From Candidatus Latescibacterota bacterium (GTDB taxonomy: Bacteria; Latescibacterota; UBA2968; GCA-2709665): 64,000 nt of DNA. Within the stretch, counting starts at the first letter, position 1, and each line of letters opens with the position of its first letter. The notes under the pieces are model-generated. The model had not been told where the DNA came from and searched no databases. It saw only the letters and a list, made by a program, of their open reading frames with translations. The position numbers and the translations under genes are program-made. Where the stretch lies: the NCBI GenBank assembly GCA_965208835.1, contig OZ242358.1:384001-448000 (forward strand). The letters run 5' to 3'. Below, piece by piece: positions 2-36,906 of this stretch.

Positions 2-115
2 GGCTCCACGGAAGTCGTCCGACTCCTGGACCGGACCGCGGAGGCTTACGTGGCGGGTGGCAAGGCGGGTATCTTCACGCCGTTGTACTGTTTCCTGGCC
101 CGCAAGCCTCTTTAG
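2..115 (+). CDS. 3' end of a sterol C24-methyltransferase (SMT/ERG6-like), partial at window edge
   Basis: Manual translation GSTEVVRLLDRTAEAYVAGGKAGIFTPLYCFLARKPL-stop matches the typical SMT C-terminus GG..GIFTPMY..ARKP; absent from ORF track. Confidence 0.8.
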   Translation, partial: GSTEVVRLLDRTAEAYVAGGKAGIFTPLYCFLARKPL

Positions 116-314
116 GCCCGCCAGAAGCGCCTGCACGCAGGACCCTCAGGCCTGGGCTCTCCTGAACCGCCAGCCGTACATGATGCGCCAGTAATAGTTG
201 AAGGAGTAACTTGCCGCGGCATCCTCGAAGTGGCAGTCCGTCCGGGAGATGAATCGTTGCGTGTGAGCCTGTCGGTACACGTCTGACAGGTTCTATTTTT
301 ATATCAGCGTCGAT

Positions 315-339
315 GTAGGGGCAACCCTTGTGGTTGCCC
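315..339 (+). repeat. GTAG-family REP-like palindrome
   Basis: GTAGGGGCAACCCTTGTGGTTGCCC; near-identical copy at 4461-4485. Confidence 0.8.
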
Positions 340-388
340 TCCCGCCATGCAGACAACAACACGACAGCGAAACGGATAAAGGGTACCT

Positions 389-1768
389 GTGACGGAGAAA
401 ACCATGCCGCGGCGTATCGCCATTGTCGGCGGAGGGATTTCAGGACTGGGGGCCGCCTGGGCGCTGCATCATCATCCGGACCGGTTTGATTTTCGCCTGT
501 TCGAGGCCCAGGACCGGATTGGAGGGAATGCGGTAACGGCCGATATGCCGCAGAACGACGGCAGCTCCATTCCCTTCGACATTTCCGTCACGGCCTGTAT
601 TCCGTCGGTATATCGGCACGTGATGTTGATGATGGAAACGTTCGGCATCGAACTGATCGATACCCGGTTCAGCTATAGCGTGAAGTACCGCGGCCGTGTC
701 TATGCCCACGATTTCGACTCGGATATCCGGGACCAGCTGCAACTCGAGATTGGGAAGTTTCAACGGGTCTTGAAGCGTCTGCATCGGTTCGGTTGGCTGA
801 CCCGTTCCGAGTCAAAGTTTCTGAACGCCCTCAATCCGTTCAACTACATCAGCATGCGGACGGTTCTGAATCTCGGCGGTTTTTCCGCGGACTTCAGGTA
901 CAAGGTACTGAAGCCCATGTTTGTCAACTTTCTGATGGCGACGAACGTATTCGACATGCCCGCGGCGCTCTTCGGGAGGTATCTCGAATTTTTCGACATC
1001 GAAACCGCCACGCCCATGCAGACGTGGGACCGGGGAACACGACGCATCTATGAGAACCTGTCAGCCGACTTCAGAGAAAGGATATACTTCAACCGTCCTG
1101 TCCAAAAGGTGTACCGTCGAACCGAAAATGTGGTGATCGAGGACGAGGACGGGGTAAGGGAGACGTTCGACGAGGTGATCTTCGCGTGCAATGCGAACCA
1201 GACACTGATGATGCTGGATAAACCCACATTGCTGGAACGGTACATACTCTCGTCCATACGTTACGAAAGCGAACTCCACAACCACACGATTGTCCACTCC
1301 GACGCTTCAGTCCTTCCTGACAATGAAGTGAAACCCCTGACCACGCGAAGCAATCACATCGAACAATACGGCGTCAGACCGGACAATTATGAAATCACGT
1401 ACATCATGCACAACCAGCAGCCGTGGGCGAAACGGTCTGACAGGCCCTGTCTGGTGACCTACAACCCGATCAGCCGGATCGATGAAAAAAAGATCATCGG
1501 AAGGTGGTGGTTCCAGCACATTGTGCACGACGTGCGCCACGTTGCCCTGCTCGTTCCACTGTTCCGCTTCATTCAGGGCAGGAAACGGACCTGGCACTGC
1601 GGGGCGCACACGCTGATCAACAGCCAGGAGACATGTTTCGTCAGCGGGCTTGCCGCAGCAACGCAGATCGGCGCGGACTATCCCTTCGAAGATCACGAAG
1701 CAAGACGGTCGTTCAACTACTATGGGAGCATCCTGTATGGGTGGGGGTTCAGGAAGGCGAGGGGCTGA
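389..1768 (+). CDS. FAD-dependent oxidoreductase (amine oxidase-like, COG2907-type)
   Basis: N-terminal IAIVGGGISGL dinucleotide-binding motif, RIGGN, C-terminal TWHCGA...QETCFVSGLAAA. Confidence 0.8.
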   Translation: MTEKTMPRRIAIVGGGISGLGAAWALHHHPDRFDFRLFEAQDRIGGNAVTADMPQNDGSSIPFDISVTACIPSVYRHVMLMMETFGIELIDTRFSYSVKYRGRVYAHDFDSDIRDQLQLEIGKFQRVLKRLHRFGWLTRSESKFLNALNPFNYISMRTVLNLGGFSADFRYKVLKPMFVNFLMATNVFDMPAALFGRYLEFFDIETATPMQTWDRGTRRIYENLSADFRERIYFNRPVQKVYRRTENVVIEDEDGVRETFDEVIFACNANQTLMMLDKPTLLERYILSSIRYESELHNHTIVHSDASVLPDNEVKPLTTRSNHIEQYGVRPDNYEITYIMHNQQPWAKRSDRPCLVTYNPISRIDEKKIIGRWWFQHIVHDVRHVALLVPLFRFIQGRKRTWHCGAHTLINSQETCFVSGLAAATQIGADYPFEDHEARRSFNYYGSILYGWGFRKARG

Positions 1769-1816
1769 AGGCGTCCGACGATATTTGGGAACGGACAATC
1801 GCCCGCGCGGCGTCGA

Positions 1817-2887
1817 TCAGGCCTTTGGAGGTTCCGGATAGAACTGCCGGCAATATCGGCGGTAGGTGCCGATGGGGCCGTCTGCCCGACAGAGCCTTGG
1901 GGGCGACCGATGCCGTTTCTTTTCCCAGATCACGACGTCCTGCAGCACATCCCGTTTCTGCTGCAAAAGCAGAATGTGATTCATCAGCCGCTGGCGCAGC
2001 TTCATGGGTAAGAAACCGAGACCCGTGATGAACCGCCCGGGCTTTCGGAACTCCCGCAGTTGGCTGACCAGGACAAGATCGATGAGGGTGCCATCGATGG
2101 GCGTAGGAAGTACCCACAATCTCGCGCGCATATCGATGGTCTTCTCGTGGATTTCGACGAAGGAGTAGCCGAGTCCATGGATGTGGGTAATGGCGGAGAT
2201 TTCGTACACGAGGTCTATCATACCCAGGATGCCGCGGACGCGTCTGAAGTCGAAGCAACTCTTCAGGTAGGCGCCGTCCACGGTAACCGAACCCACCGGA
2301 TTCACCTTGTCGTAGCCGTGTACATACCGAAGGTGTCCCAGATCCACTGAGTTTTCGGCCGTTTCCTGGGGATGGCTGCGGAATCGGAGACGTCGGAATC
2401 CCAGTTTACTCCACTCGGCGCCGGTGGGCGGCTCACCCGGAAGATCCCAGTGCGCGGGCCTGTTGCCGTTCCCGTACCACGCGAAGACGAGGCCAAAGAT
2501 CTCTCTGGTTTCGTAGACCTTGAGTTTCGCGGCTCTGGGCGCCGGGGCGTTCGGTGTCGCCACGCATTGGCCGGTTGCATCGAACTCGAATCCGTGAAAT
2601 GGACAGACCAGGCGTCCGTCGCAAACCCTCCCGCCAACGTCCGGCCCCAGCGATGAGCCCAGGTGGGGGCAAATAGAGTCGGCCACGCAAACACGGCCCT
2701 CCTCGTCGCACCAGGCAACGATTTTTTCTCCCATCCAGGTCTTCTCTACCAGCTTCTCTCGCAGAAGGGACTCCCGCGTCTCTACCAGATACCAACCTTC
2801 GGGGAACGGGGGCAGATGATCAGCACCGGCCGCGCCCGGTTCTCTGGCCAACCTTTCCTGTGTCTCTGGCGATCCTGTTGAAGCCAT
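1817..2887 (-). CDS. Rieske 2Fe-2S oxygenase/desaturase, KshA/Neverland (cholesterol 7-desaturase)-like
   Basis: FPEGWY, CPHLG...CPFHG Rieske ligands, ENSVDLGHLRYVH mononuclear-iron motif; ATG 2887 with GGAGG RBS. Confidence 0.8.
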   Translation of the reverse strand: MASTGSPETQERLAREPGAAGADHLPPFPEGWYLVETRESLLREKLVEKTWMGEKIVAWCDEEGRVCVADSICPHLGSSLGPDVGGRVCDGRLVCPFHGFEFDATGQCVATPNAPAPRAAKLKVYETREIFGLVFAWYGNGNRPAHWDLPGEPPTGAEWSKLGFRRLRFRSHPQETAENSVDLGHLRYVHGYDKVNPVGSVTVDGAYLKSCFDFRRVRGILGMIDLVYEISAITHIHGLGYSFVEIHEKTIDMRARLWVLPTPIDGTLIDLVLVSQLREFRKPGRFITGLGFLPMKLRQRLMNHILLLQQKRDVLQDVVIWEKKRHRSPPRLCRADGPIGTYRRYCRQFYPEPPKA

Positions 2888-2916
2888 GCGAGCCCGATCC
2901 TCCTGATCCCGCGCTA

Positions 2917-4200
2917 CTACCACGCCTTCAGCGCATCCCTGAACAGCGCTGCCAGGTCCTCTCTTCCGGCGGGCCTCGGCGACAGCTTGGTCACGCGGTG
3001 CTGGGGCAGCGTGCCCTCCACCAACGCCGGCACGTCGGCTTCCGTAAACCCGATCGCGGAAAGTCCGTTGGGCATTTCGAGACGCTTCATCAGCACGACG
3101 ATGCGGTCGGCGAGGATCCCTCCCGCCTCCGTCTCAGGGTCCTTCACCCCGGAAATGTCCGCGCCCAGCAGTTGCGCGGCCTTGAGATGGCGTTCCGGGC
3201 ATGCAGGACCGGTAAACCGGAAGGAGGCCGGCGCGTTCAGGAAAACCGACATCCCATGGGGCACGATGGGATGGTCGCTTACCATCCCATCCGGCCGGTA
3301 ATCCTGCACCATCCCCGAGACGGGATAGGACATCCCGTGAGGGAGATGAACGCCCGCGTTGCCGAAGCCCATCCCAGCCATGCTCGATGCCAGAATCATA
3401 TTCGACCTCGCCTCGTCATCATCCGGATCCGCAACCGCGCGCACGATGTTTTCCGCGACGAGTTCGATGGCCCGGATCGCCCACATGTCGCTGATGGGAT
3501 TGGTGCCCTGGTAAGCCGGCCGCAGAATCGGCCGTTCGGGCAATGGCCGCTGGTCGTAAGGAATCGCCGTATAAGACTCCAGCGCGTGGCAGAGCACATC
3601 CAGGCCCGTCGAGGCCGCAACAACGGGCGGCATGGTTCGCGTATTCTCAGGATCCACAATGCCCAGCGACGGTTTCAGGCGGCGGTGGGCGATGCCGGTC
3701 TTGACGTGTTTTGCGGAAATATCGAATATCGTGACACCCGTGGTCTCGCTGCCGGTTCCGGCGGTCGTCGGAATCGCGATCAGCGGCTTGAGCGCGCCGG
3801 GAACCGGCTTGCCGCTGCCGATCGGGGCGTTCACGTACGCGTAGAAATCATCGGGAAAGGTGGAATAGAGATTCGCGGCTTTTGCCGTATCGATGGAGGA
3901 ACCGCCGCCCACGGCAACGAACGCATCGAAGTTTCCATCCAGCGCAAAGTCGATGGCTTCCTGAAACGAAACGTCCGTGGGTTCGACCCTAACACGGTCA
4001 TAAAGCGCGTAATCGACCCCCTCGCTCTTGAGGGATTCGACCGCCGTCCGCACAGGCGGCAGGTCCACGAGATTGGGGTCCGTTAACAGCATCACCCGCC
4101 TGGCGCCCAGTTCGGACAGATCCATGCCCACTTCCCTTGTCGCGCCCGGTCCGAACCGCAAGTTCGAAGTTCCCATCTCAAACGCGAAATCGGTCTGCAT
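2917..4200 (-). CDS. Hydroxyacid-oxoacid transhydrogenase (iron-containing alcohol dehydrogenase family)
   Basis: GGGSSIDTAKAANL, PTTAGTGSE, DVLCHALESYT, GVHLPHGMSYP, VPHG; RPAYQG segment typical of HOT/ADHFE1. Confidence 0.88.
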   Translation of the reverse strand: MQTDFAFEMGTSNLRFGPGATREVGMDLSELGARRVMLLTDPNLVDLPPVRTAVESLKSEGVDYALYDRVRVEPTDVSFQEAIDFALDGNFDAFVAVGGGSSIDTAKAANLYSTFPDDFYAYVNAPIGSGKPVPGALKPLIAIPTTAGTGSETTGVTIFDISAKHVKTGIAHRRLKPSLGIVDPENTRTMPPVVAASTGLDVLCHALESYTAIPYDQRPLPERPILRPAYQGTNPISDMWAIRAIELVAENIVRAVADPDDDEARSNMILASSMAGMGFGNAGVHLPHGMSYPVSGMVQDYRPDGMVSDHPIVPHGMSVFLNAPASFRFTGPACPERHLKAAQLLGADISGVKDPETEAGGILADRIVVLMKRLEMPNGLSAIGFTEADVPALVEGTLPQHRVTKLSPRPAGREDLAALFRDALKAW

Positions 4201-4460
4201 TCGTTCTCCTGTTGCCGGAATAGGTAAGAATCCGGTCAGAAATGACGTGTCGCCTTACATCCCGCCCGACACGGGGGCTTGTAATTTTAAGAAAATGCGC
4301 GGGTGGAGGCAAGGATTACGGGGAAAAGACCGGTTCGGGCGAAGCCAAGCGGCATATCGGCAATAGCAGATCGCTAAAGGCGGGCGGTTCGCGATGCTCT
4401 CTACAAGAACCCGACATTCGTCGTATTGATATAGCGGTCTGACGTGACGCCCTTTCATTT

Positions 4461-4485
4461 GTAGGGGCAACCCTTGTGGTTACCC
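4461..4485 (+). repeat. GTAG-family REP-like palindrome
   Basis: GTAGGGGCAACCCTTGTGGTTACCC, one mismatch to 315-339. Confidence 0.75.
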
Positions 4486-4738
4486 AACCTGAAGCTTTTT
4501 TGACTCATCCTTTGTGTATTCGTCTCTTTGTGTGAGCCCGGATTTCTTGCCTTTCTCCCCCTTTCCTTCAGGAGAGGGGGTTGGGGGGAGAGGTCTGGCG
4601 CCGTCGTCAGAACCGACGTTTACGCCTGCCCCGCTGCAGGACTTTCTCGCAGGCATGACGACTTTTGTTTATCATGAAGTGTGTACCACCCCAGCACGTC
4701 GTTTGTCTCACGCCACCCGCTATTGGAACGATCATCCT

Positions 4739-6709
4739 GTGTCTCCTGAAGATCCCTCAAGAATACGCAATCTTGGTATCCTCGCACACGTCGATGCCGG
4801 CAAGACGACCGTGACTGAGAATCTGCTGTTCCAGAGCGGTGCCATCCGCATGGCCGGAAATGTCGACAAGGGGACAAGCCTCTCCGACACGCTCGACGTG
4901 GAGAGGCGGCGAGGGATCTCGGTCCGGGCATCGGCGATGTCATTTGAGTGGGAGGGCGTGAGGATCAACCTGATCGACACGCCGGGTCACGTCGATTTTT
5001 CCGCCGAAGTCGAACGGTCTCTTCGGGTGCTGGACTGCGCCGTTCTCGTTCTTTCGGCGGTCGAAGGCATCCAGGCCCAGACCGAGTCGATATGGGCCGC
5101 GCTGGAAGCGCTGAACGTACCCGTCATCGTGTTCGTGAACAAACTGGATCGGACCGGCGCGGATACGGCGAGGGTCGTCGATGATCTGAAGCGTCGATTT
5201 TCACGCGACGTGATTCTGGTCAATCAGCCGGAGAAGGAAGGCGAACCGGACGCGCGTATGACCGATCTTGACCCGGACGGCCAGACCGCCCTGGCAGAGA
5301 CCGTCGCCGCGAAGGACGACGCGCTCCTGGAGCGATTTCTGAACGAGGAGCCAATTTCACGAGCAGAGATCGAGAAAGTGATTGCGGCTTGCACGGCCAG
5401 GAGAGAACTGTTTCCCATACTCTGCGGTGTGGCCAAGAACATGATTGGAACGGAGGAACTGCTGGGGAAGATCGTGGCCTGGTTCCCCGATGCGAATGTC
5501 GATGACTCACGTCCACCCTCCGGCGTGGTGTTCAAGCTCGACCACGATCCGAAACTTGGGCGCATCGCCGGCGTTCGTCTCTTTGCAGGACGACTCCAAA
5601 ACAGAGATATCATCCGGAATGTTACGGCTGATCGCGACGAGAAGATTACGCAGATCAAGAAATCCTATCTCAATCGATACGAGGACACGGGCGCCCTCTC
5701 CGCCGGCGACATCGGTTTCTTCTGCGGGATGCCGGAGGCTAAGATTGGCGACGTCCTGGGCGACCCGGGTCCCATCCCCGGGTCCTGCGAACTCGGAGAG
5801 CCGCTGCTGTCGGTACAGGCAATCCCGGAACATGAGGCGGATCACGCTCTGCTGGCCGGGGCGCTGCAACAGTTGTCGAGCGAAGACCCACACCTCAACT
5901 TCACGTGGTTCGAGGATGAGCGCGAACTGCAGGTGAAGATCATGGGCCCGGTTCAGGCGGAGATTCTGACCGAGATGCTCGATGCGCGATTTGGCATAAA
6001 AGCGCGGTTTAGTGACCCAGCGGTCATTTACAAGGAGACACCTGCTTCGGTCGGCTTCGGCATCGAGCGCTACACGATGCCGAAACCGTGTTGGGCCATC
6101 GTGAAATATCGGATCGAACCGGGCGAGCCGGGAAGTGGTGTCGTTTATTCGTCACAGGTCGGCGTCAACGACATCAAGGCACGATATCAGAAAGAGATTG
6201 AAAGATCGATCGAGGGCGCGCTCAGGCAGGGAATCAAGGGATGGGAAGTCACGGATCTGAAGATTACCCTGGTGGAGGGGAGCGATCACGTTCTGCACAG
6301 CCGTGCGGGCAATTTCAAACTCGCGACGAATATCGCGGTGTTGAAAGGGCTGACCGAGACCGGGTCGATTCTGCTCGAACCGATACTGGCGTTCAAAATC
6401 ACGGTGGCCGAGACCTACGTTGGCAGGATCACGTCGGACATCATCAACGCGCGCGGCACCTTCGATCCCGTTGAGGCAGACGGAGGTGCGTTATCGGTTA
6501 CGGGACGATTACCCCTGGCGACTTCGATGGACTATCCCATCCGGCTGAACTCGTTGACGGGCGGAACGGCGAAATTCTCCTTTAAGTACGACGGATATGA
6601 GCCGTGCCCGCCGGGCGAGGGCGTCGTGCGGCCCTACAAGGGGATATCGCCGCTGGATCGGGCGAAGTACATCCTGGCGATGCGCGGGGCGGTAACGGAA
6701 GCCGTTTGA
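4739..6709 (+). CDS. TetM/TetO/OtrA-like translational GTPase (ribosome-protection-protein-like EF-G paralog)
   Basis: NLGILAHVDAGKTT, ERRRGIS, DTPGHVDF, NKLD; about 650 aa; OtrA-like C-terminal tail SPLDRAKYIL; GTG start at 4739 inferred. Confidence 0.82.
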   Translation: MSPEDPSRIRNLGILAHVDAGKTTVTENLLFQSGAIRMAGNVDKGTSLSDTLDVERRRGISVRASAMSFEWEGVRINLIDTPGHVDFSAEVERSLRVLDCAVLVLSAVEGIQAQTESIWAALEALNVPVIVFVNKLDRTGADTARVVDDLKRRFSRDVILVNQPEKEGEPDARMTDLDPDGQTALAETVAAKDDALLERFLNEEPISRAEIEKVIAACTARRELFPILCGVAKNMIGTEELLGKIVAWFPDANVDDSRPPSGVVFKLDHDPKLGRIAGVRLFAGRLQNRDIIRNVTADRDEKITQIKKSYLNRYEDTGALSAGDIGFFCGMPEAKIGDVLGDPGPIPGSCELGEPLLSVQAIPEHEADHALLAGALQQLSSEDPHLNFTWFEDERELQVKIMGPVQAEILTEMLDARFGIKARFSDPAVIYKETPASVGFGIERYTMPKPCWAIVKYRIEPGEPGSGVVYSSQVGVNDIKARYQKEIERSIEGALRQGIKGWEVTDLKITLVEGSDHVLHSRAGNFKLATNIAVLKGLTETGSILLEPILAFKITVAETYVGRITSDIINARGTFDPVEADGGALSVTGRLPLATSMDYPIRLNSLTGGTAKFSFKYDGYEPCPPGEGVVRPYKGISPLDRAKYILAMRGAVTEAV

Positions 6710-6761
6710 ATCCAATGTCAAGTCACGGCGCCGAACGCAGATCGACGCACGGTATGTGTCA

Positions 6762-6785
6762 GGGCGACCGGCCGGTCGCCCCTAC
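6762..6785 (-). repeat. GTAG-family REP-like palindrome
   Basis: Reverse strand GTAGGGGCGACCGGCCGGTCGCCC. Confidence 0.7.
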
Positions 6786-7033
6786 ACAAGCAGGCATCCG
6801 CGAATTGAGTTCGCCAGGCCGTATCGACGTCCTATGGGCAGGGTCTGGTCCTCTTTCTTCTTCCTTTTTCCCTCTTCCTTCACGCCAGAAATCCCTTGTC
6901 CCGTCTCTCGAAATCGAATATACTCCCGGTCGTCATCCTGGCGTTTCCAACCAGCCGCAACGCGCCCATCTCGTTGGGCTCGGATCTATTGCCCTCGTTC
7001 CACGCGCTATTGCGGCGTTCTTTATTCCAGTCG

Positions 7034-7822: not shown

Positions 7823-7865
7823 ACATTGACGCCAGCATGCGACGCTGTGTAGAAGTCGCTAAAAG

Positions 7866-7996
7866 GCGGGGAGACGGTAGAGGGAAGAGGGTAGATGAAA
7901 TCCTTGCCCGCTATATCCTTTCTTGTCGCCTCCGGCATGAGAAGAATCCTTACAGGGCGGGCAATCTCTCCCTTCTACCGGCTTACGTCTACCCGC
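7866..7996 (+). repeat. Heptamer-armed ~130-bp dispersed element, copy A
   Basis: Arms of GGTAGAG/GGAAGAG-type heptamers and their complements around core CCTTGCC...GGCATGAGAAGAATCC. Confidence 0.8.
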
Positions 7997-18921: not shown

Positions 18922-19680
18922 TCAGAACACGCCCGGGATGAGGGCACGGCGGCTGGGCGGGTAGTCCGTGAAGCGTTCCTGGTACCAGCGGTGATTGCTG
19001 CGGGCCCGGGGGACCAGATTGGCGATCGTATAGACGCAGAACGCGAGCCCGCCGGGCGACCACGTGGCGATCGCCCAACCCGTCCATTCCAGAATCTCGC
19101 CGAGGTAGTTCGGGCTGGAGACGTACCGGAAGGCGCCGCGGTCCGGGACGACGTAACCTGCGCCTCCCTGTTTCCGCAGGCCGCGCAGGATGCCGTCGCT
19201 CTGCACATTCAGAACGATGCCACCGGCGAAAACTGCCGCTCCGATCAGGAAACACGGGTTGGTCAGCCATGAAACAGGGTACTCGCCGAGGTGGGAGACG
19301 AACCGGGCATTGACGTAAGCATTCAGCATATTGAAGAAGAACCCCGATCCGGCGACGACAAGCGGCATTCTTCGGCCGGTCCGCATCCGGAACGGGTAGA
19401 TGAGCGTCCGGTTCAGGTAATGGCCCTGCCACATTGCCAGGAAAACCAGCGACAAGAGGTTGCCCCTCAAGCTCCCTTGCAGATAAACGAACAGGAAGAA
19501 GAAGACCGCCGGAGACTCCATGCCGATCCAGCCCGCCCTGCTGGAGACGGCAGGCCCCCAACCGGAGCCCGGAAAGTGGCGGCCGTAAGGCGCCGGTCTC
19601 CGAAGCAAATACAGGAAAGTCACGCCGGCCAGGCCGAATATGACCCATACCAGCAGGCGGTAGATGTCCGGCTCAGTCAT
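18922..19680 (-). CDS. 3-oxo-5-alpha-steroid 4-dehydrogenase (steroid 5-alpha-reductase, SRD5A/DET2-like)
   Basis: APYGRH, WIGMESPA, HYLNRTLIYP, SDGILRGLRK, YVSSPNYLGEILEW, NLVPRARSNHRWY, RRALIP. Confidence 0.9.
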   Translation of the reverse strand: MTEPDIYRLLVWVIFGLAGVTFLYLLRRPAPYGRHFPGSGWGPAVSSRAGWIGMESPAVFFFLFVYLQGSLRGNLLSLVFLAMWQGHYLNRTLIYPFRMRTGRRMPLVVAGSGFFFNMLNAYVNARFVSHLGEYPVSWLTNPCFLIGAAVFAGGIVLNVQSDGILRGLRKQGGAGYVVPDRGAFRYVSSPNYLGEILEWTGWAIATWSPGGLAFCVYTIANLVPRARSNHRWYQERFTDYPPSRRALIPGVF

Positions 19681-19681: not shown

Positions 19682-19978
19682 TCAGCAGTCACGATCGCAG
19701 AGATCCAGCCTGTGCGCTGTGATGTTGTTCTCGCTGGCGTCGATCTTTCGAAGTTCGTCCTTCAGCGACGATTCCATTTGAGGCACATTGCGCGCGCAGG
19801 TCGCTACGACCGTCGCACCCCAGCCTGCCAGGATCCTCGCGGTTTCGAACCCGAGGGAATTCGGCGACGCCCCGGTTGCGATCACGTGGCGGCCAGTCAT
19901 ATCGACCGGCGTCGCCAACGGTTTACGGCCGCACAGGTGAATCAGATGTTTGGCGAATTTGGAAAGGGCTTGCGGCAT
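19682..19978 (-). pseudogene. Truncated short-chain dehydrogenase (retinol dehydrogenase/WWOX-like)
   Basis: VIATGASPNSLGFETARILA...LDLCD Rossmann start, ends after 98 aa with no YxxxK. Confidence 0.75.
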
Positions 19979-25119: not shown

Positions 25120-25857
25120 ATGTTGACTGACGAACAGGTGGGGCAGTTTCGGAAAGACGGCTATCTCGTCTTCGAATCCCTGATACAGGGCGAGCGATTG
25201 GCCTATTACAAGCGGGTGTTTGATGAACTGGTCGCAAAGGGGAGCAAATTAACCGGGCAAACGCCGCACTGGGCGCTGGAACTGGACGAAAGCGGCAACC
25301 CCCGGGCGGGTCTGCTGCACAAGGTTCAGGGCGTTTGCGTGGTGGATGCCCGCGTTCTGGAACTGGCGCGCGAACCGGCGATTCTGGACCGCGTGGCCGT
25401 ATTGACGGGCGAAAATATCGATGTGTTCGGCACCAAGTTTTTTCCGAAGCTACCCAACGGCGGCACGTCAACGAGCTGGCATCAGGACAATTTCTATTTT
25501 GGCACCGATACGAATCGCATCATCAGTTGTGGGATATACCTGGAAGATTCAGACGTGGAGAACGGATGTCTGCGCGTGGTGCCCGGCAGCCACCGGATGG
25601 GCGAGATTGTCGAGCACCGCAGAAATCCGGGCAGGCATGGCAGCTGGACGGAGGTCGATGAATCGCGGGCTGTGGATCTGGTCGTTCCCGCCGGCACGGT
25701 CGTTCTGTTTTCCGCCAATCTCCTGCACGGTGCCTATGATAACCACAGCAATCGCACGCGTTACAGTACGGCCTGGCATTATATGCCGGAGGAACTCAAT
25801 CCGGATAGGTTTCCAAAGGGAGTGTACGAAGATCGACACGTGGCGCGTACACATTGA
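25120..25857 (+). CDS. Phytanoyl-CoA dioxygenase (PhyH) family
   Basis: WHQD, NGCLRVVPGSH, LLHG...R. Confidence 0.9.
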   Translation: MLTDEQVGQFRKDGYLVFESLIQGERLAYYKRVFDELVAKGSKLTGQTPHWALELDESGNPRAGLLHKVQGVCVVDARVLELAREPAILDRVAVLTGENIDVFGTKFFPKLPNGGTSTSWHQDNFYFGTDTNRIISCGIYLEDSDVENGCLRVVPGSHRMGEIVEHRRNPGRHGSWTEVDESRAVDLVVPAGTVVLFSANLLHGAYDNHSNRTRYSTAWHYMPEELNPDRFPKGVYEDRHVARTH

Positions 25858-29871: not shown

Positions 29872-29882
29872 TTAGGGCGTCA

Positions 29883-30104: not shown

Positions 30105-30251
30105 AATTCGAAGAAAGATAACCGTTAAATTGGCCACAAAAAGCACAAAAGGTATCGGTACCAAACGGCGTGTGCAGTAACGCCGTGACCTTGCGGTAAT
30201 TTCCGGCGATACACCCTGTAACAGAATCGCTGTTTTTGTGCCTCTTGTGGC
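30105..30251. repeat. GCCACAAAAAGCACAAAA-type inverted repeat element
   Basis: GCCACAAAAAGCACAAAA ... TTTTGTGCCTCTTGTGGC; related ends at 45991-46031 and 62503-62543. Confidence 0.62.
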
Positions 30252-30327
30252 AACTCGCCCTGAATCGAAAAATCCGGCAAGCCGACACCGCGGCGAAAAA
30301 TTCCGAAACGGAGCGGACGTCTGACGA

Positions 30328-31242
30328 TCATTCAGCGGTGTCGTCCTGCACAGCCCATCCCGGATCAGGGTCGCCGGCCATCGCCTTCCGAACGTCGGGG
30401 CCGGGCGCCCCTGCCGTGCCCCAGAGGTCAGCCGTTTCCGGCACCCGTCTCCACACCGCGGGTTTGTGCGTTGCTTCGTCTTCGATGAACGCTATGTCGC
30501 TCGAGAATTCGTTCACATATCCAGCCGGATCCCTGTAGTAACAGAAGATGTTGTTGCCCGGTCCGTGACGCCCCGGTCCCCAGTCGGGTTCCTGCCCCCG
30601 GGCACGCAGGTTGGAGACCCCTTTCATCACGTCGTCCACATTCGCCATCACATACGCAATATGGTTGACCGACGCGTAGTCTGCGCGACTGAAGACAATG
30701 ACGTGATGTCTCCGGCCGCAACGCAGGAAGGCCAACCGGTCCTCAATCCGGTCCGAGACCCGAAACCCGAGAATATCCGTGTAGAACGCCACGGTCTGCT
30801 CGAACCGCGGCGTGTTGAGACCCACGTGGCACAGCCGGCGTGGGGCGACTTTTCCGGTTGACCCGCCGCTCAGGTGTACGTCCACGTCGGCCGACAACTC
30901 GATGCAGCGGTTCTCCGGGTCAAGAAACCGCAGCCCGTATCCGCCGCCGGGTTCGTCCAGGTCGTCCGGCTGCGCGACGAGGGGGGTTCCCCGCCGTTCG
31001 AGTTCGGCTGCCGCCGCGTCGACTGCTTCGCATCCGTCAAGGCCGAAGGCCAGGTGGTGGAGCCCGGTCCGGCCGGCCGGATGCAGGCTGAGAACGTGGT
31101 GCCCGGTTGACGAGGCGCGGAGATATCGTGCGTGTCGGTGTTCTCCTGCCGACTGGAGTCCCCAGTCCTCGAGATAGTATCTGGTGTGGGCCGCGATCGC
31201 CGGCGACAACAACCCCACGTGGCGGATGTCCCGAATCTTCAT
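30328..31242 (-). CDS. VOC-family extradiol dioxygenase-like protein
   Basis: IRHVGL, LHHLAF, CHVGLN, FLRCGRRHH, NHIAY, GPGRHGPGNNIFCYYRDPAG..E. Confidence 0.85.
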   Translation of the reverse strand: MKIRDIRHVGLLSPAIAAHTRYYLEDWGLQSAGEHRHARYLRASSTGHHVLSLHPAGRTGLHHLAFGLDGCEAVDAAAAELERRGTPLVAQPDDLDEPGGGYGLRFLDPENRCIELSADVDVHLSGGSTGKVAPRRLCHVGLNTPRFEQTVAFYTDILGFRVSDRIEDRLAFLRCGRRHHVIVFSRADYASVNHIAYVMANVDDVMKGVSNLRARGQEPDWGPGRHGPGNNIFCYYRDPAGYVNEFSSDIAFIEDEATHKPAVWRRVPETADLWGTAGAPGPDVRKAMAGDPDPGWAVQDDTAE

Positions 31243-31958
31243 AAGTGGGGTTCTCTTAATGGTCGCCTGGCGGGTTTTCCTCCCGATCTCCTCCGGGTCA
31301 ACTCGATCTTCAAGTCCCGTCGAATGTAGATTTCGATGAACTCGCGCAGCCACACTTCCTTCGCAAGCGTGAATCGCTCGATCAGTTTCTGCTCGGGTCT
31401 GTGAGTGAGATAAACGATTCGCCACAGGTTGAGGGGTCGCAATTCGTCACCATCGACCGAATGCTCAACGTGAAAGAGCGGCTGTCCTTCGCCCGCTCGC
31501 AGCAGGATCCCGTCCTGGTCGAGGAGTTCCGATGCCCCGATGAAAGTGGCACTCTGCCGAGCAGGGTTGAGGAATACCTGCTCAAGGACCAATCCGTTCT
31601 CCGAGGGCTCAAGCCAGAGGCGCTGCCGCGAGCATCGCACGAAGGATTCGGCGCCGCCGGCCGCCGCCTGCCGGCGCCAATAGCGGGAGCTTTCCTCCGA
31701 TACGACCGAAGGGATATACAGGTCGGGCCGGAACGCCTTTTTCACCTCCATGTCCCATAACATGGACCGGGTGAACTTGAGCGGCTTGTTCGTGCGGTAA
31801 TGCCTGGAGAGCGCCAGATTGATGTCCACCGGAGACAACTCGATTCGTGTGTTGTCCGGGTCGGCCCAGGCCCGCTCGAACGCCTCTTCATGCCTCAGTT
31901 GGGCGACCGGCTTCGATGCCTGCTTCCTAGGGCTGGCATCTTCCGCTTCGCGTCTCAC
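31239..31958 (-). CDS. Hypothetical protein, weak resemblance to DUF1857/AtaL SRPBCC fold
   Basis: FTRSMLWDMEVKKAFRPDLYIP motif; stop overlaps next start; GTG start inferred. Confidence 0.55.
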   Translation of the reverse strand: MRREAEDASPRKQASKPVAQLRHEEAFERAWADPDNTRIELSPVDINLALSRHYRTNKPLKFTRSMLWDMEVKKAFRPDLYIPSVVSEESSRYWRRQAAAGGAESFVRCSRQRLWLEPSENGLVLEQVFLNPARQSATFIGASELLDQDGILLRAGEGQPLFHVEHSVDGDELRPLNLWRIVYLTHRPEQKLIERFTLAKEVWLREFIEIYIRRDLKIELTRRRSGGKPARRPLREPHL

Positions 31959-32154
31959 GACTAACCTTGATTCGTAAGTCTTCGGGGACGTTAATTCGAA
32001 TATGTGCTTGTAAATAAAGGCGATTAAACGGCGGATTACCAGGATACACCAGGTCACTGGACGTGAAGGGAAAAAACGTCATTCTATACGTCGATATCGC
32101 CCCGTTTCGGAGGGTTTTATCGTGTCGCCGCGTTGCTGTTTTTTCGGATTGAGG

Positions 32155-33924
32155 CTAACTCTCCCGGCTCTTCCCTTGGCCAATCTCCGGGACTTTCACG
32201 TGAACGGTTACGATTTCCGTGTCGTGGAACTGCTGGTGGCGAACGGAAGACGCGATGTGCCGCAACAGCCGCAGCGAGACCTCCCGCTCCATCAGTACCT
32301 CGTCAGGGGTCTCGGTGAGCAGGGCGATCCTGTTCTGAAGGTTATCCTCGCCGGACGCTGCTACGAACTCGAGGACGGCCCCGTCGGCTTCCTTGCGCGC
32401 CTGCAGGAGCAGACGCCGACCCTCGCGTTTCTCGTGGTCCTCATCCTCCCCGATCAGTGTCAGCAACGTCTCCTCGCTGGCGGCGTCGAGACGGTCGACC
32501 ATTTTCGCACCCCAGCCGCTGCGGGATGCGAACGTATCGAGGAACTCCCTGATCTTCGGAAGCACGGACAGGTCGAGCGCCGTTTCGATCCGGCTGCGGC
32601 GCTGCGCCGTCAATTCCAGAAACAGGGTCATGAGGATCGCCATGATACCGCCGGCCGTGATGCCGTTGCTCAGCAGGCCGCCCCCCAGCTCCGCGAGAAG
32701 TTCGGGGAACAGGAGGTCGTTCTGGCAGCCCACGCCGACCCAGAAGGCGACACCTGTGATCAGGGCCTTGCGATGGTCGATTCCGCCCTGCACCACCTCC
32801 GTCATCCCCCTGACGAAGGTCATTGCCAGCACGACGGTCAGATAAGCGACGACGACCGGGCTGGGTATCGCCAGTATCATGGCAAGGACCTTGGGCAGGA
32901 ACGCAAGTACGACCAGCACGCCAGCCGCAACGATTCCAACGCGGCGTGCTGCGACGCCCGTCAGCTCGACCGTCGGGACGCTGACTCCGATGGTCTGAGT
33001 CGGCACGATTCCCGCGATGCCTGACAGCAGTTTACCGATGCCGTCCGCCGTTACTGCACCCTCCACCGCCCGGTAGTCCACGGCCCGCGGCTGGCGCCAC
33101 GACACGCGCTGGATGGCGACCGCACCGGTGATCGTCTGGATAGCGCCGATGAGGGAAACGAACGCGAAGGCAGGCAGGAGTTCCACAAAGGCCGGGCCGA
33201 GGTCGAGCCCGATTCCCGGCCAGCCGCCCTGGGGCAAACCGATCCACGGAGCCCGGGCAATCAGATCGAAGTCATAGAGCCCCATCGATCCGCCAATAAC
33301 CGAGCCCGCTATTACCCCGATGAGCGGCGCCCACAGACGCAACGTTGCCCCGGCCTTCAGGGAGATGCCGCCGATGACCAGCCCCGTCGCCACGGCGGTG
33401 AGCGGCGCACTGAGCGCCGTCTCGGGCGGCGCGTCGGCCAGGCGACTGAATACGACCGGCAGCACGGTCGCAGGTATCAGCATGTTCACCGTGCCGACGA
33501 TGGTCGGTGTCAGAAGCCGCCTGAACAGGGCCAACCGCATCGAGATCACGATCGGGACGAGCGACGATGCGACGACCAGGGTGGCGAGAAGCGGCGGACC
33601 GCCCTCGTTGAGGGCGCTGACGCAGACCCCTATGAAGGCTCCGGCGGGGCCCATGAAGAGCAGGTATCCTGCTCCGACGCGGCTCAGCCTGACCGCTTGC
33701 AGAGCCGTGCAGACGCCACTCACGGCGACTGCGCCGAACACGGCCCAGGACAGGTACGCATCGGTTCCGCCGCTGACCCGGATGATAATCGTGGGGATAA
33801 AGATGATGCTGGTTATGCCGAGAACGACGAGCTGGAGGCCGCTGCCCAGAGACACAAGCGCCGGAGGATTCTCGTGGGGTTCGTATTGAACGCTGGAAGC
33901 GCTTTGCTCGTCACGGCTGCTCAC
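32155..33924 (-). CDS. NCS2 (xanthine/uracil) family permease with C-terminal soluble domain
   Basis: YEPHENPP, GLQ, TALQ..R..VGAG, ADGIG, TGVAARRVG, PKV; about 150-aa extension. Confidence 0.85.
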   Translation of the reverse strand: MSSRDEQSASSVQYEPHENPPALVSLGSGLQLVVLGITSIIFIPTIIIRVSGGTDAYLSWAVFGAVAVSGVCTALQAVRLSRVGAGYLLFMGPAGAFIGVCVSALNEGGPPLLATLVVASSLVPIVISMRLALFRRLLTPTIVGTVNMLIPATVLPVVFSRLADAPPETALSAPLTAVATGLVIGGISLKAGATLRLWAPLIGVIAGSVIGGSMGLYDFDLIARAPWIGLPQGGWPGIGLDLGPAFVELLPAFAFVSLIGAIQTITGAVAIQRVSWRQPRAVDYRAVEGAVTADGIGKLLSGIAGIVPTQTIGVSVPTVELTGVAARRVGIVAAGVLVVLAFLPKVLAMILAIPSPVVVAYLTVVLAMTFVRGMTEVVQGGIDHRKALITGVAFWVGVGCQNDLLFPELLAELGGGLLSNGITAGGIMAILMTLFLELTAQRRSRIETALDLSVLPKIREFLDTFASRSGWGAKMVDRLDAASEETLLTLIGEDEDHEKREGRRLLLQARKEADGAVLEFVAASGEDNLQNRIALLTETPDEVLMEREVSLRLLRHIASSVRHQQFHDTEIVTVHVKVPEIGQGKSRES

Positions 33925-33961
33925 GAGTCTACCCTGCAGGATTGGGCGGTCCGGAACGGGC

Positions 33962-34261
33962 TCAGGCAGGCCGCCCCGTCAACCAGTTCCATGGTCGGAT
34001 GTGAGACTCGGCGAAGATGCCCGCCTGGGCATAGGGACTGCCGGCGACAAAGGCCTGAGCCACCTCGAGCGAGGGCGCTTCGAGTACGAGGACCAGACCG
34101 GTGACTGACTCGCCACTCTCGCTGAGCGTCTGCCCGCCGTGATGAACGGACACATCGGGATGTTGGGCATGATCGTGAAGGTACGCGGCGAATGCATCCT
34201 GCAATCCGGCCCTTTCCTGTCCCTTTTCCGCCTTGTGAGTTGCGAAGACGACGAAATACAT
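33962..34261 (-). CDS. YciI-family protein
   Basis: 99 aa, TGLVLVLEAPSLEVAQAFVAGSPYAQAGIF...IRPW. Confidence 0.8.
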   Translation of the reverse strand: MYFVVFATHKAEKGQERAGLQDAFAAYLHDHAQHPDVSVHHGGQTLSESGESVTGLVLVLEAPSLEVAQAFVAGSPYAQAGIFAESHIRPWNWLTGRPA

Positions 34262-34592
34262 ATGGCACCCTCCGTTTGCTGCCGGGATGCTCGCAAGACC
34301 ACGTCAGTTTGAGGAAACGCGTGCAACCGGCAGTCGATCACTTGAGTTGCGGGAACGTACGGATTCTCCACGTTTCGACACCCGCTTGTCGCAATAGCGT
34401 AGGTGACGCCACCGAAACTAGACGAAGTGTCGATAAAGGTGGTTTCGTATTAAATAGTATAATGGAATCGGTACCGATGGCAACCCTGCGAGGCAGCCCG
34501 GTATGACACGGCAGGGTACACGGGAGGCCTTTCAGGAAGCCTCAAAATGCGGCATCACAGGCGTTCCTGGAAGGCTGATGGACACCCACTGA

Positions 34593-35492
34593 TTACCTCA
34601 ATCCATTGATGTCATATCTTGATACAAAATTCCAGATCAGCGCGCTCGTATTGGCGCCGTCGCAGTTGATATCGAACCAGACGTGCCCTCCGTTGACCAC
34701 CTTGTAATGTTCAACGGAGGTATTTTTGTCTCCATTCGACCAGGAATGGCGTTCAATCGTCGTCGCGCCGTCGGCGATGCGGTTCACCGTGGGAGTTGCG
34801 CCGGTATTGTTGAAATCCGTCCAATAATCGAGCACGTCGTCGATTGACTTCAGTCCCGAACCTCCGCCATACGGGACAACAGCGTCTGATGTGCCATGGA
34901 TATTGATCATGGCGGTGGGGCGCGACGGGCTGCAGTTGTTAAAGGTCTCCACCATCATCGTTCCGGCAACGGAACCGATGGCCGCTATTTTGTTACTGTG
35001 GTAGCAGGCGAGCGCATACGTAAAAAACGCGCCATTCGAGTAGCCGCAGGAATAGACTCTTGCCGGGTCGATCCTGTAATTGGCTGAGATCTCACCGATC
35101 AGCGCTTCCACGAAGCCGAAGTCATCCGCATCGCTCTTGTTGGTATCCGATTCCAGACCGGCATTCCAGTGCGGGTTTCCATCCAGCAGGGTGCCTTGAG
35201 GATAGACCAGAATGAAATTTTCTGAATCCGCCAATGACCGCATATCCGCGAATCTCAGATACCGGGCCGCGTTCTGGCCGAATCCGTGAAAGTTGAACAT
35301 CAGCGGGACATTTGAAGTCTCATCATAGGAATCCGGCACATAGAGAGTGTATGTTCTGGTTACGCCGTTATGGGAAAGTGTTTGTGTAAACTGACCCGAT
35401 GAATCAGGCGCATCGAGCGGGATATCATCATTGCCTGAACAGGAAATCAGACCTGTAAGCGTCACGGCAGAAATGAAAAAAAGCCTTGTCAT
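34593..35492 (-). CDS. PHB depolymerase/LpqC-like esterase, probable lipoprotein
   Basis: LISC lipobox, NFHG, VYPQG, GYSNG, IHGTSD, GGHVW. Confidence 0.85.
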   Translation of the reverse strand: MTRLFFISAVTLTGLISCSGNDDIPLDAPDSSGQFTQTLSHNGVTRTYTLYVPDSYDETSNVPLMFNFHGFGQNAARYLRFADMRSLADSENFILVYPQGTLLDGNPHWNAGLESDTNKSDADDFGFVEALIGEISANYRIDPARVYSCGYSNGAFFTYALACYHSNKIAAIGSVAGTMMVETFNNCSPSRPTAMINIHGTSDAVVPYGGGSGLKSIDDVLDYWTDFNNTGATPTVNRIADGATTIERHSWSNGDKNTSVEHYKVVNGGHVWFDINCDGANTSALIWNFVSRYDINGLR

Positions 35493-35509
35493 CAAGGCAG
35501 TCCCCAGAT

Positions 35510-35726
35510 GCGGTGAGACGGTAGAGGTGAGACGGTAGAAGAAATGCGGGTAGAGGGAAGAGGGTAGACGGTAGAAGAAGCCCTTGCCGATTTGTTCCTA
35601 CGACTTGCCTGCGGCAAAAAAGAATCCCTTTACGGCATCCGATCTCTCCCGTCTAACGTCTCCCCTCTCACCGAGTGGTGGCGCGGGGTGTGGTCCTCTC
35701 CCCTCTTCCGTCTTGCATCTACCCGC
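35510..35726 (+). repeat. Heptamer-armed element, copy D (nested, doubled arms)
   Basis: Two left arms, core, two right arms separated by GGTGG...GTGTGGTC. Confidence 0.78.
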
Positions 35727-35766
35727 TTTTGAGGGGCCGGGGGGAGAGGTCAGGCTGACAGCTGTT

Positions 35767-36906
35767 TCAATATAGGCCGGGGAAGATCCGATACTTCACG
35801 CGCGCCTGATACTCCGCCCACTTATCGGGGCCGTATTTCTCCGCGCAGTAGATGTCGTCATCGTGTTGACGCCAACTGAACATCGCGATGATGAAGGCAA
35901 AGTAGGTCCAGACCCAGGGATTCGTGAAGTAGCCGAAAACCAGGGCGATCGACAGGGCGAGGATCCCTTCGCCCATGTAGTTGAAGTGGCGTGCGACACC
36001 CCATAGCCCGCTGCACAGGATCTTTCGGTCTCCGGCCTCGATGTACTCGGGTTCGATAAGGCCGAGAAACTTGCGTTCGGGCCATCGCTTGAACGAGTAT
36101 TTCTGCAGGTTGGCGCCGCGCGAGATACCCCACCCGAACAGGAACAGCGCGCCCGCGCCGATGAGCCAGACATACGTCCACGTCGGCGAGAATCCCGGAT
36201 CCGGGTAGGCCGCCATACCCCACAACGGAAGGATGAACAGCCATCCGTAGACGACGAGGCAGCCCCAAAGCAACTTGAAGCCGAGCCTTTCATGGATCAG
36301 ATCGAAGGTATATAGCTGGACGCGCTCGAAAACGCAGTAGTCCAGAATGTAGAACGCGAAGAACGCCGCGTAAAGGAAGACGCCCGGATTGGAATCTTCG
36401 CCAAAGAGCTTGTAGTGATAGGCGGCCCCGGACAGGGCGTTGAGTGCCAGCATCGCCCCACCCACGACATACAGATACATCTTCACGTCAATGCGGTTGT
36501 TGAAGAACGACAATTCACGGGCCCGCCCGAACCACAGCGCCAGAAGCGGATTCTTTACCTCGCCACGCGGCTGACTGAACACCGCGACGATTGTAAAGAT
36601 CATGGCGAAGACCGTTCCGCCGGTCACAGAATAGATGGAGGTCCGGTAAAACCAGTCCAGGGGGATGCCGGTGAGTTCGAATGCCCATACGATCAGCGCG
36701 ATTGCATACACCAGCAGCCCGTTCAGCCGGTAACTGCGGGGCTGACCCGTTTCCGGATTGATAACGTAGCCCGGGACCCGTCTTCCCGGTAATATAAGCT
36801 GCGCCAGGAAGAACGCGACGAAGATCGCCAGCGGGGCGAAAAATCCCGCAATTGCTTCCGTGTGGGAAAGCTCGAACAGGTGGCCGATACCAAGCCATTC
36901 AATCAC
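35767..36906 (-). CDS. Sterol reductase, ERG4/ERG24/DHCR7 family
   Basis: YRLNGL, GRARE, DLIHERLGFKLLWGCL, ANLQK..F, SGLWGVARHFNYMGE, DD..CAEKYG..W..Y...VKYRIFPGLY. Confidence 0.88.
   Translation of the reverse strand: MIEWLGIGHLFELSHTEAIAGFFAPLAIFVAFFLAQLILPGRRVPGYVINPETGQPRSYRLNGLLVYAIALIVWAFELTGIPLDWFYRTSIYSVTGGTVFAMIFTIVAVFSQPRGEVKNPLLALWFGRARELSFFNNRIDVKMYLYVVGGAMLALNALSGAAYHYKLFGEDSNPGVFLYAAFFAFYILDYCVFERVQLYTFDLIHERLGFKLLWGCLVVYGWLFILPLWGMAAYPDPGFSPTWTYVWLIGAGALFLFGWGISRGANLQKYSFKRWPERKFLGLIEPEYIEAGDRKILCSGLWGVARHFNYMGEGILALSIALVFGYFTNPWVWTYFAFIIAMFSWRQHDDDIYCAEKYGPDKWAEYQARVKYRIFPGLY

Follow-up and report, generated by a model that had tools for sequence, protein, structure and literature searches.

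What does a bacterium do with sterol-type enzymes when its genome holds no route to sterols? The question is raised by a 64,000-nucleotide stretch of a Candidatus Latescibacterota bacterium (hereafter the window; positions 384,001 to 448,000 of contig OZ242358.1, assembly GCA_965208835.1, G000:C1:384001-448000 in our numbering). The genome, G000, is a single contig of 5,180,620 bases and is 97.8% complete. An initial annotation of the window had placed four steroid-family genes within 37 kb, the tail of a sterol C24-methyltransferase (SMT), a Rieske oxygenase, a steroid 5-alpha-reductase and a reductase of the ERG4/ERG24/DHCR7 family (ERG4/24), and had taken them for a dispersed toolkit of a symbiont that modifies sterols. 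All four genes were found where they had been placed, profile scores confirmed that they belong to steroid families, and the observation of clustered sterol-family genes is thereby confirmed. In the whole genome the profile search gave one match each to PF01222, PF02544 and PF19298 and two to PF08498. Because the window thus holds the only ERG4/24, 5-alpha-reductase and KshA-type genes of the genome together with one of its two SMTs, their proximity is not due to chance; the rough probability of four given single genes falling within 37 kb of 5.18 Mb is 1.4e-6. We read the kit as three horizontally acquired pieces within about 46 kb, namely a 12.3 kb insertion (the cassette), a pair of a short-chain dehydrogenase/reductase (SDR) and the 5-alpha-reductase, and a 1.6 kb ERG4/24 island. 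Only part of the word dispersed stood: the two reductases do lie separately, but the SMT and the Rieske gene belong to one compact mobile cassette. With moderate confidence we propose that the bacterium tailors exogenous sterols that it does not make, by means of this cassette and the optional reductases. The enzyme families themselves are known; the cassette, its modular variants, its predominance in genomes without a cyclase and its link to a GPP34::P450 fusion gene are new.

The cassette occupies G000 374590-386916, starting 9.4 kb upstream of the window and reaching window base 2916. Gene limits were set with our own heuristic of longest open reading frame (ORF) plus GC3, and not with a gene caller. 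On one strand follow an outer-membrane factor of the NodT family (OMF; G000 374965-376572, 259 bits), a membrane-fusion protein (MFP; G000 376579-377790), an AcrB-type permease of the resistance-nodulation-division (RND) family (G000 377787-380981, ACR_tran 534 bits), the GPP34::P450 gene (G000 381013-383040, GPP34 104.8 bits and p450 124.6 bits) and the methyltransferase gene SMT1 (G000 383045-384115, plus strand, window 1-115; 356 aa, Methyltransf_11 65.3 bits and Sterol_MT_C 61.1 bits). Next come an FAD-dependent amine-oxidase/CrtI-fold oxidoreductase (FADox; window 389-1768, plus strand, Amino_oxidase 54.9 bits) and, convergent to it, the gene for a KshA-type Rieske non-haem-iron oxygenase (window 1817-2887, minus strand, Rieske 61 bits and KshA_C 74.8 bits). 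The translation of window bases 2-115 is the C-terminus of SMT1, ending in a stop; the gene begins 955 bases before the window, and 4 bases separate it from the end of the GPP34::P450 gene.

For comparison we used the genus of G000 (g1, 15 genomes, G000 and 14 congeners), its sister genus (g6), 61 related genomes, 36 mostly closed cassette genomes of other lineages and 14 control genomes. In one congener (G008) an SSF symporter gene and a gene for an Fe-dependent alcohol dehydrogenase (Fe-ADH) lie 155 bp apart with nothing between them. As G008 has this empty site, the 12.3 kb block is an insertion/deletion polymorphism within the genus. The Fe-ADH gene, which forms the right flank of the insertion in G000 (window 2917-4200, minus strand, 146.9 bits), accompanied SMT1 in just 4 of 80 loci and lies outside the mobile cassette. 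The G+C content of the cassette was 60.5%, against 59.5% for the genome, and this comparison of composition gave no signal of foreign origin.

The 5-alpha-reductase family gene lies at window 18922-19680 on the minus strand (ORF to 19692; 252 aa from the ATG at 19680; Steroid_dh 164 bits). Its product scored 239 bits against PDB 7C83 (residues 8-255) and 137 bits against human SRD5A2 (7BW1), which places it in the SRD5A family, and the gene was found at the same site in three congeners (G007, G008 and G009). Beside it stands a truncated SDR gene with NCBIfam SDR matches (window 19682-19978, minus strand), of which about 97 N-terminal codons are left. The SDR remnant of the initial annotation is real: by BLASTP it shares 82 of 97 residues (85%) with the N-terminus of a complete 333-aa dehydrogenase, whose gene stands before that of the reductase in G008 (L186:4655-5656). 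An intact SDR upstream of the reductase in G009 was ruled out, its place being occupied by an unrelated 279-aa gene.

The ERG4/24 gene (window 35767-36906, minus strand, 379 aa) sits in an island at window 35507-37111 (G000 419507-421111). When G000 418400-421700 was compared by blastn with the corresponding locus of G009 (L178), the flanks alone aligned, and 828 bp of unrelated DNA stood in place of the island. The protein matched ERG4_ERG24 (PF01222) with 108.8 bits over profile positions 78-432 of 432, the cut-off being 27, and includes the C-terminal, NADPH-binding half; it also scored 118 bits against the sterol reductase MaSR1 (4QUV) over residues 27-379. In the cassette-less G008 residues 234-379 survive alone. 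About 2 kb from the site of the G000 gene, G009 carries an extra Rieske-SMT pair, and sterol-type genes have landed in this 50 kb region more than once. The extra pair (L178:5845-7999; KshA_C 79.5 bits, Sterol_MT_C 81.3 bits, Region I YEYGWG) sits between homologues of a peroxidase gene (window 39146-41308) and an AhpC gene (window 38432-38923).

The ERG4/24 protein was 32-33% identical to the reductases that G073, G074 and G083 carry in sterol gene clusters, and it did not group with them as an ERG24 orthologue. Since G074 and G083 hold an 81% identical relative of it apart from the canonical ERG24 of their clusters, the window enzyme is probably not the C14 reductase. Full-length relatives of the window type (67-84% identity) were present in 21 of the 36 cassette genomes of other lineages at unlinked places, so the ERG4/24 gene is itself horizontally shared. 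Relatives of the 5-alpha-reductase at 57-63% identity were found in 8 of the 36.

Whether these enzymes could belong to a sterol pathway of the bacterium's own was examined by profile search. The initial annotation had stated for the window that oxidosqualene cyclase (OSC) and squalene epoxidase are missing, and the absence extends to the whole genome. The best cyclase match in G000 (PF13243, 24.9 bits, in a 296-aa frame) was below the cut-off, PF08491 for squalene epoxidase had no match, and a CYP51-type P450 was absent from the genome, which has just two P450 genes. G000 thus lacks the pair of OSC and squalene epoxidase by which de novo sterol synthesis was recognised. The second P450 (G000:C1:3849209-3850480, L203:8855-10537) was closest to 7WZL (239 bits), followed by the carotenoid hydroxylases CYP97 (193 bits), the cholesterol 24-hydroxylase CYP46A1 (151 bits) and CYP51 (142 bits).

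The same picture was obtained in the relatives. A full-length cyclase was found in 0 of the 15 genomes of the genus, which include the single-contig genomes G002, G008, G009, G010 and G000. Among the 61 related genomes it occurred solely in G017 and G050 (201-207 bits); in G017 an SMT and two ERG4/24 genes lie no more than about 80 kb from it. Of the 36 cassette genomes elsewhere, 28 had no cyclase and 8 had a full-length one; five of these eight are Nitrospirales (cyclase 475-487 bits), three of them with a fusion of squalene epoxidase and cyclase (SE::OSC). It could be argued that G000 makes sterols with a cyclase that escapes the profiles, or with one encoded in a part that the assembly may lack (roughly 2% of the genome), as completeness is 97.8% and not 100% and as a conserved protein of 280-296 aa with a weak cyclase-repeat match (21-25 bits) occurs throughout the genus. 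This protein of about 290 aa is, however, far below the cyclase frames of G017 and G050 (657-669 aa), the G000 assembly is one contig, and squalene epoxidase and CYP51 are absent as well. We regard de novo synthesis as extremely improbable.

The distribution of the cassette was studied in species-representative genomes, where SMT1 had at least 557 relatives (at least 599 stretches matched). In the best 80 of these loci, with SMT1 at 72-91% identity, a neighbour was scored as present at 50% identity or more. GPP34::P450 was present in 65 of the 80 loci, and in 56 of the 68 that had at least 4 kb on both flanks; in 59 of the 65 it lay within 300 bp of the SMT. The Rieske gene was found in 65, the RND gene in 38 and the FADox gene in 36 of the 80. 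Of 80 SMT1 loci from metagenomes, for the most part short, 28 had the P450; among the 36 whose flanks are complete, 16 had it. PF08498 had matches in 0 of the 14 control genomes. The cassette is a unit to which the two reductases are optional accessories, and the four genes are not an obligate toolkit.

The initial annotation had named co-occurrence across metagenome-assembled genomes (MAGs) as a check, and the genes are common to relatives titled as MAGs of many phyla; the titles of the best 80 SMT1 loci bear 12 phylum labels. Five genomes in which HemB shares 52-59% identity with that of G000 have an SMT1 at 77-83%, and three of them have an ERG4/24 at 81-84%. With HemB so much more divergent, vertical descent cannot account for such a level of SMT1 identity. 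Nor can the sharing be put down to mis-binning, because many SMT1-bearing records are titled complete chromosomes. The SMT1 tree (12 phylum labels, median end branch 0.057) required 18 label changes where the minimum is 11, and labels clustered more than shuffled ones; with some of the labels unreliable, the tree alone is no proof of many transfers. The suggested tie to sponges held as well, in that sponge-metagenome-labelled runs from three studies contain the stretch at a share of 0.22-0.66 (threshold 0.2). No RNA run was listed as containing it.

The composition of the cassette varies in an informative way. In the 14 congeners the fusion gene occurred as class A in seven (71-85% identity to that of G000) and as class B in four (51-52%), and three had none. 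Counting G000, the eight class A holders included seven with a full-length ERG4/24 and five with the 5-alpha-reductase; for the four class B holders the numbers were zero and four; and of the three genomes without a cassette one had a full-length ERG4/24 (the other two had fragments) and one had the 5-alpha-reductase. These are counts of kin that are not independent and are suggestive only. G007 and G010 have a class A cassette without the SMT. In class B cassettes the SMT slot is filled by an extended SDR, alignable over its whole length with both SdmB and HpnA (200-207 bits each; cut-offs 600 and 368). G009 and G013 have the P450 with the SdmB/HpnA-like SDR, and in G002 and G028, the latter of another family, the order is RND, GPP34::P450 (52-57%), SDR and then directly the 5-alpha-reductase. 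An SDR of the class B type was not found in G000, where the best match was 26-29% identical. In G068 GPP34::P450 lies 1.1 kb from an ERG4/24 gene, and in G084 ERG4/24 lies 7.5 kb from the P450 gene and about 9.5 kb from the SMT.

The cassette was also found joined to a gene cluster for de novo sterol synthesis. In G074 (Nitrospirales) the fusion gene, SMT1, FADox and a second SMT adjoin ERG24 (250 bits) and a 500-aa P450, and the same cluster holds a 1189-aa fusion of squalene epoxidase and cyclase and an MMPL protein with a sterol-sensing domain. The fusion frame (L202:4559-8128) scored 89 bits for squalene epoxidase and 174.5 and 189.6 bits for the two cyclase domains; the MMPL protein has 764 aa, with 31.4 bits for the sterol-sensing domain. 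Similar SE::OSC frames of 1164-1269 aa were seen in G073 and G083. Three of the five Nitrospirales genomes have, besides the fusion gene, a separate P450 of 500-501 aa beside ERG24 and SE::OSC. To judge from their gene content, these modular variants point to steroids.

The GPP34::P450 gene is one ORF of 675 aa with GPP34 at residues 15-215 and p450 at residues 249-663, and the haem cysteine motif YGLGTHMCLG is present. The best solved relatives of the P450 domain were CYP120 (80 bits) and CYP51 (70 bits), and the domain did not qualify as a CYP51; in the ESM Atlas it matched generic P450 clusters only. A role of the fusion as C14 demethylase was ruled out by the separate 500-aa P450 in the de novo cluster. 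Because that P450 sits in the G074 cluster, we interpret the fusion P450 as an extra tailoring enzyme. A stand-alone short GPP34 gene (G000:C1:5021211-5021819), 39% identical to the N-terminal domain of the fusion, was found in G000 and in all 14 congeners, with or without the cassette.

A different function has been suggested for this architecture. According to the main text of the study that described it as GPP34_L (PMC11706023), the fusion of GPP34 and P450 is exclusive to sponge symbionts, and it was proposed to be a secreted effector that binds phosphatidylinositol 4-phosphate (PI4P) and acts against phagosome maturation. Transferred to G000, the fusion would bind PI4P of the host and block phagosome maturation, and its neighbours would be passengers. 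The GPP34 score of 104.8 bits and the reported restriction to sponge symbionts would agree with this, as would the paralogues of class C, for which the query set gave no sterol-type neighbours. Against it stands how close the fusion is to the SMT (no more than 300 bp apart in 59 of 65 loci, with many phylum labels), and the other variants adjoin SdmB-like, 5-alpha-reductase or ERG4/24 genes. The N-terminus is acidic and polar and, judged by eye, has no obvious hydrophobic stretch like that of a signal peptide. In an alignment to human GOLPH3 the tryptophan is kept, and valine replaces the arginine of 'GLRG', a residue that we take to be needed for PI4P binding. An effector function, which would not fully exclude sterol tailoring, seems to us unlikely.

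The two remaining oxidoreductases were assigned to families with differing precision. The Rieske ORF extends to window 2923, with a likely start at 2887 because the homologues have 356 aa. The protein has the CPH-x17-CPFH, D-x2-H-x4-H and ENSVDLGHLRYVH motifs and belongs to the KshA type, KshA being its top PDB match (80 bits). It is not an SdmA, as it scored 40 bits against NF052579 with a cut-off of 600. Among the 120 matches listed in a homologue search, all at 65% identity or more, the names were generic; the ESM Atlas placed the protein with clusters named ring-hydroxylating oxygenase or cholesterol 7-desaturase, which gave no functional resolution. The best solved relatives of FADox were LkcE (95 bits) and the 'putative aminooxidase' 2B9W (38 bits).

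The kinship with KshA brings up steroid catabolism, in which the bacterium would grow on host sterols by 9-alpha-hydroxylation and ring opening. KshA is the closest solved relative of the Rieske enzyme, and the 5-alpha-reductase family also works in reverse, as its Pfam name 3-oxosteroid 4-dehydrogenase indicates. Yet the genome has a single KshA_C gene, a methyltransferase and an efflux pump are unsuited to a degradative operon, and no ring-cleavage genes were seen among the annotated genes of the window and the cassette (kstD and hsa were not searched genome-wide). We consider catabolism very unlikely.

For SMT1 a published residue signature allows a closer view. The protein has the domains of an SMT, namely Sterol_MT_C (61.1 bits; cut-off 21.7) and a SAM methyltransferase domain. 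According to the main text of a recent study (10.64898/2025.12.19.695621), 84GWGxxFHF91 and T78 occur in every SMT that methylates desmosterol or 24-methylenecholesterol, and the signature of functional SMTs, 25 residues in all, further includes 125DxGxGxxGP133, Y74 and others. SMT1 retains Y74, GWG, HF, E195, G217 and the C-terminal motif F357-x-P359. Region I of its family reads F-M-V-[W/Y/F]-G-W-[G/S/N]-E-S-L-H-F across 154 loci. The metagenome matches to SMT1 include contigs of the JGIcombinedJ30088, LXNI and MKWU series, and none of the contig names in the main texts of PMC10070321 and 10.64898/2025.12.19.695621 matches these relatives. Judged by the published signature, no SMT1-type enzyme is among the SMTs demonstrated to be active.

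The second SMT of G000 (G000:C1:704522-705547, minus strand, L006:10522-11547; 341 aa, 42% identical to SMT1) does fit the functional signature, with Phe at 81 and 83 and with Gly at 249 when counted from E195 and G217 assuming no indel. This combination was described as necessary but not sufficient for propylation, as far as the main text of that study goes (10.64898/2025.12.19.695621). The surroundings of the second SMT, with heparinase-like, GFO oxidoreductase and ApbE genes, are unrelated to the cassette.

Several results weigh against the tailoring of sterols. SMT1, mapped by motif, fails the functional signature at S78, M81, V82, W83, L89 and A132, and the departure is largely a family trait: L89, Met-Val at 81-82 and Ser, Asn or Gly at 78 run through the 154 loci, although A132 occurs in just 6. 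Given this departure the usual sterol substrates may be unfit for SMT1. The SDR beside the 5-alpha-reductase is broken in G000, and no ferredoxin or reductase partner was identified for the P450 or the Rieske enzyme. Within 10 kb of SMT1 the 5-alpha-reductase was found in 0 and ERG4/24 in 1 of the 80 loci, and in most lineages these two genes do not travel with the cassette. The eight SMT1 holders of the sister genus lack this ERG4/24 as well as a strong 5-alpha-reductase; the four genes do not co-occur as a set. For the class C GPP34::P450 genes (ten loci, L188-L197, of g1 and g6; 33-36% identity) the query set revealed no sterol-type neighbours; an RND gene at 40% identity lies in one of these loci. 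The taxon labels on which the sharing is read are those of the submitters and partly conflict, relatives of one genus being titled both Gemmatimonadota and Latescibacterota. Finally, squalene is available within the cell, since G000 has an hpnC-hpnD-hpnE operon (G000:C1:2438495-2441603, L183:5495-8603) with HpnC at 319, HpnD at 313 and HpnE at 390 bits, all above the NCBIfam cut-offs, and SQS_PSY genes are present in 36 of 36 cassette genomes.

The last point leads to another substrate. SMT-like triterpene methyltransferases of Botryococcus methylate the terminal isopropylidene double bond, and SMT1 might do the same with an endogenous acyclic isoprenoid, such as the squalene of HpnCDE or a polyprenyl or carotenoid chain; the P450, flavin and Rieske enzymes would then oxidise the chain, and the pump would export it. 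The complete squalene route in a genome without cyclase, the SMT1 residues that depart from the sterol-active signature and the membership of FADox in the CrtI/HpnE fold family would all suit such a reaction. The presence of SQS_PSY in every cassette genome says little, as it was also seen in 8 of the 14 control genomes. Variant cassettes hold a steroid 5-alpha-reductase and the SdmB/HpnA-like SDR, the module lies within an OSC-CYP51-ERG24 cluster in Nitrospirales, and the Rieske enzyme is of the KshA type, which all argue for steroids instead. An isoprenoid substrate is in our estimate rather unlikely.

The initial interpretation was thus partly supported. Its claim of a modifier and not a maker of sterols agrees with the enzymes and with the absent cyclase, epoxidase and CYP51, while the HpnCDE squalene route leaves room for a non-sterol substrate. 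Its example of 24-alkyl stanols was too specific, as the cassette SMT is off the published signature and the SDR partner is truncated. Tailoring without synthesis is nevertheless the best reading because of the steroid-family enzymes, the lack of OSC, squalene-hopene cyclase, epoxidase and CYP51, the sponge runs and the sharing across phyla. From the same data we infer a substrate, an order of steps, a role of the GPP34 domain and a direction of transport. The sterols, supplied by the host, by its diet or by neighbours that synthesise them, would partition into the cell envelope. The P450, tethered to the membrane by GPP34 instead of by the usual N-terminal anchor, would act with the Rieske and flavin enzymes to hydroxylate or desaturate the sterol, SMT1 would methylate the olefin produced by these oxidases, the ERG4/24-like enzyme would reduce the new double bond, and the AcrB-type pump would expel the products.

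Sponges contain unconventional sterols, among them 26-methyl, 24-isopropyl and other side-chain alkylated, ring-modified or stanol forms. A more specific version of the tailoring reading is that the cassette converts host or dietary sterols into such compounds, with SMT1 methylating in a non-canonical way and GPP34 anchoring a sterol P450; on sequence evidence this is conceivable, with a small chance of being correct. Alkylated-side-chain steranes are used to date early animals, and the makers of their precursors in sponges are disputed. If the proposal is true, a mobile bacterial cassette working on sterols of eukaryotes would account for some 'sponge' sterane biomarkers, and the GPP34 domain would serve to anchor a sterol P450 to membrane or lipid and not as a phagosome effector. 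At this locus an SMT-family enzyme is combined with an efflux pump and three oxidoreductases, and most of the bacteria that carry the set are unable to make sterols. The remodelling by symbionts of sterols made by hosts or neighbouring bacteria thereby becomes a directly testable hypothesis. It also offers a concrete candidate biochemical role for GPP34::P450, so far interpreted only as a possible phagosome effector, and it draws attention to the SMT1 clade as a whole.

Between the cassette and the reductases lie ordinary genes, for an ABC transporter, an enolase-superfamily protein, a gamma-glutamyltranspeptidase, a PD40 protein, PhyH, an FAA hydrolase and a Na/H exchanger. The gene of the phytanoyl-CoA dioxygenase (PhyH) family (window 25120-25857, plus strand, 116.8 bits) has a counterpart (L006:16832-17611, 125.5 bits) about 5 kb from the second SMT, and a link of the PhyH genes to isoprenoid or sterol side-chain chemistry is possible. 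An EF-G-like GTPase of 731 aa (window 4514-6709, plus strand) scored higher with the model NF012153 for tetracycline ribosomal protection (550.9 bits, cut-off 775) than with any EF-G model. About 80 extra residues extend its N-terminus, and congeners have it beside the cassette site too, at 90-97% identity. Several heparinase II/III-like genes occur at separate places in the genome (G000:C1:370162-372489 and 701683-704487, L183:9486-11936), one of them directly left of the flanking symporter, and would be consistent with feeding on host-type glycosaminoglycans.

Several known systems resemble parts of the kit. The 5-alpha-reductase and the ERG4/24 protein share folds and families with PbSRD5A (7C83) and with the delta-14 sterol reductase MaSR1 (4QUV), respectively; unlike MaSR1, the window enzyme is shorter and belongs to a divergent subfamily. 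Class B cassettes pair a Rieske oxygenase with an extended SDR, as in SdmA/SdmB of the Methylococcus type, but the scores (Rieske 35-52 bits, SDR 200-207 bits) are far from the cut-offs of 600, and the SDR is equally HpnA-like. In Ircinia symbionts, MAGs of about ten phyla were reported in the main text to carry ERG24-CYP51-LSS clusters, with SMT enriched (PMC9531527). Like the cassette these clusters are horizontally spread, and G074 has that core beside cassette genes; they are however centred on a cyclase and imply de novo synthesis, whereas G000 and 28 of the 36 cassette genomes have no cyclase.

For the SMTs, a precedent is a Chlamydiae MAG with SMTs and no other sterol genes, for which the main text of the study suggested methylation of host sterols (PMC10070321). 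SMT1 is, like the SMTs of that study and of 10.64898/2025.12.19.695621 as their main texts describe them, a Sterol_MT_C methyltransferase of uncultured, largely sponge-associated bacteria. Unlike them its clade has the Region I MV[W/Y/F]GW[G/S/N]ESLHF without F89 and T78, and it is tied to GPP34::P450 and the RND pump. The words 'P450' and 'transporter' are absent from the main text of PMC10070321, a check that leaves its gene-cluster figures and supplements aside. The main text of PMC11706023 likewise contains none of the words sterol, methyltransferase, efflux, operon and lipid, its supplements being outside that check, and full-text literature searches found no paper that links GPP34::P450 to sterol genes, though figures or supplements might show such neighbours. 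The fusion described here agrees with GPP34_L in its two-domain architecture and in its occurrence in sponge-associated bacteria of many phyla, and it qualifies as a GPP34_L protein. That study, by its main text, analysed the flanks of the short form only (PMC11706023), whereas in the present data a sterol-type cassette has the fusion gene as its hub.

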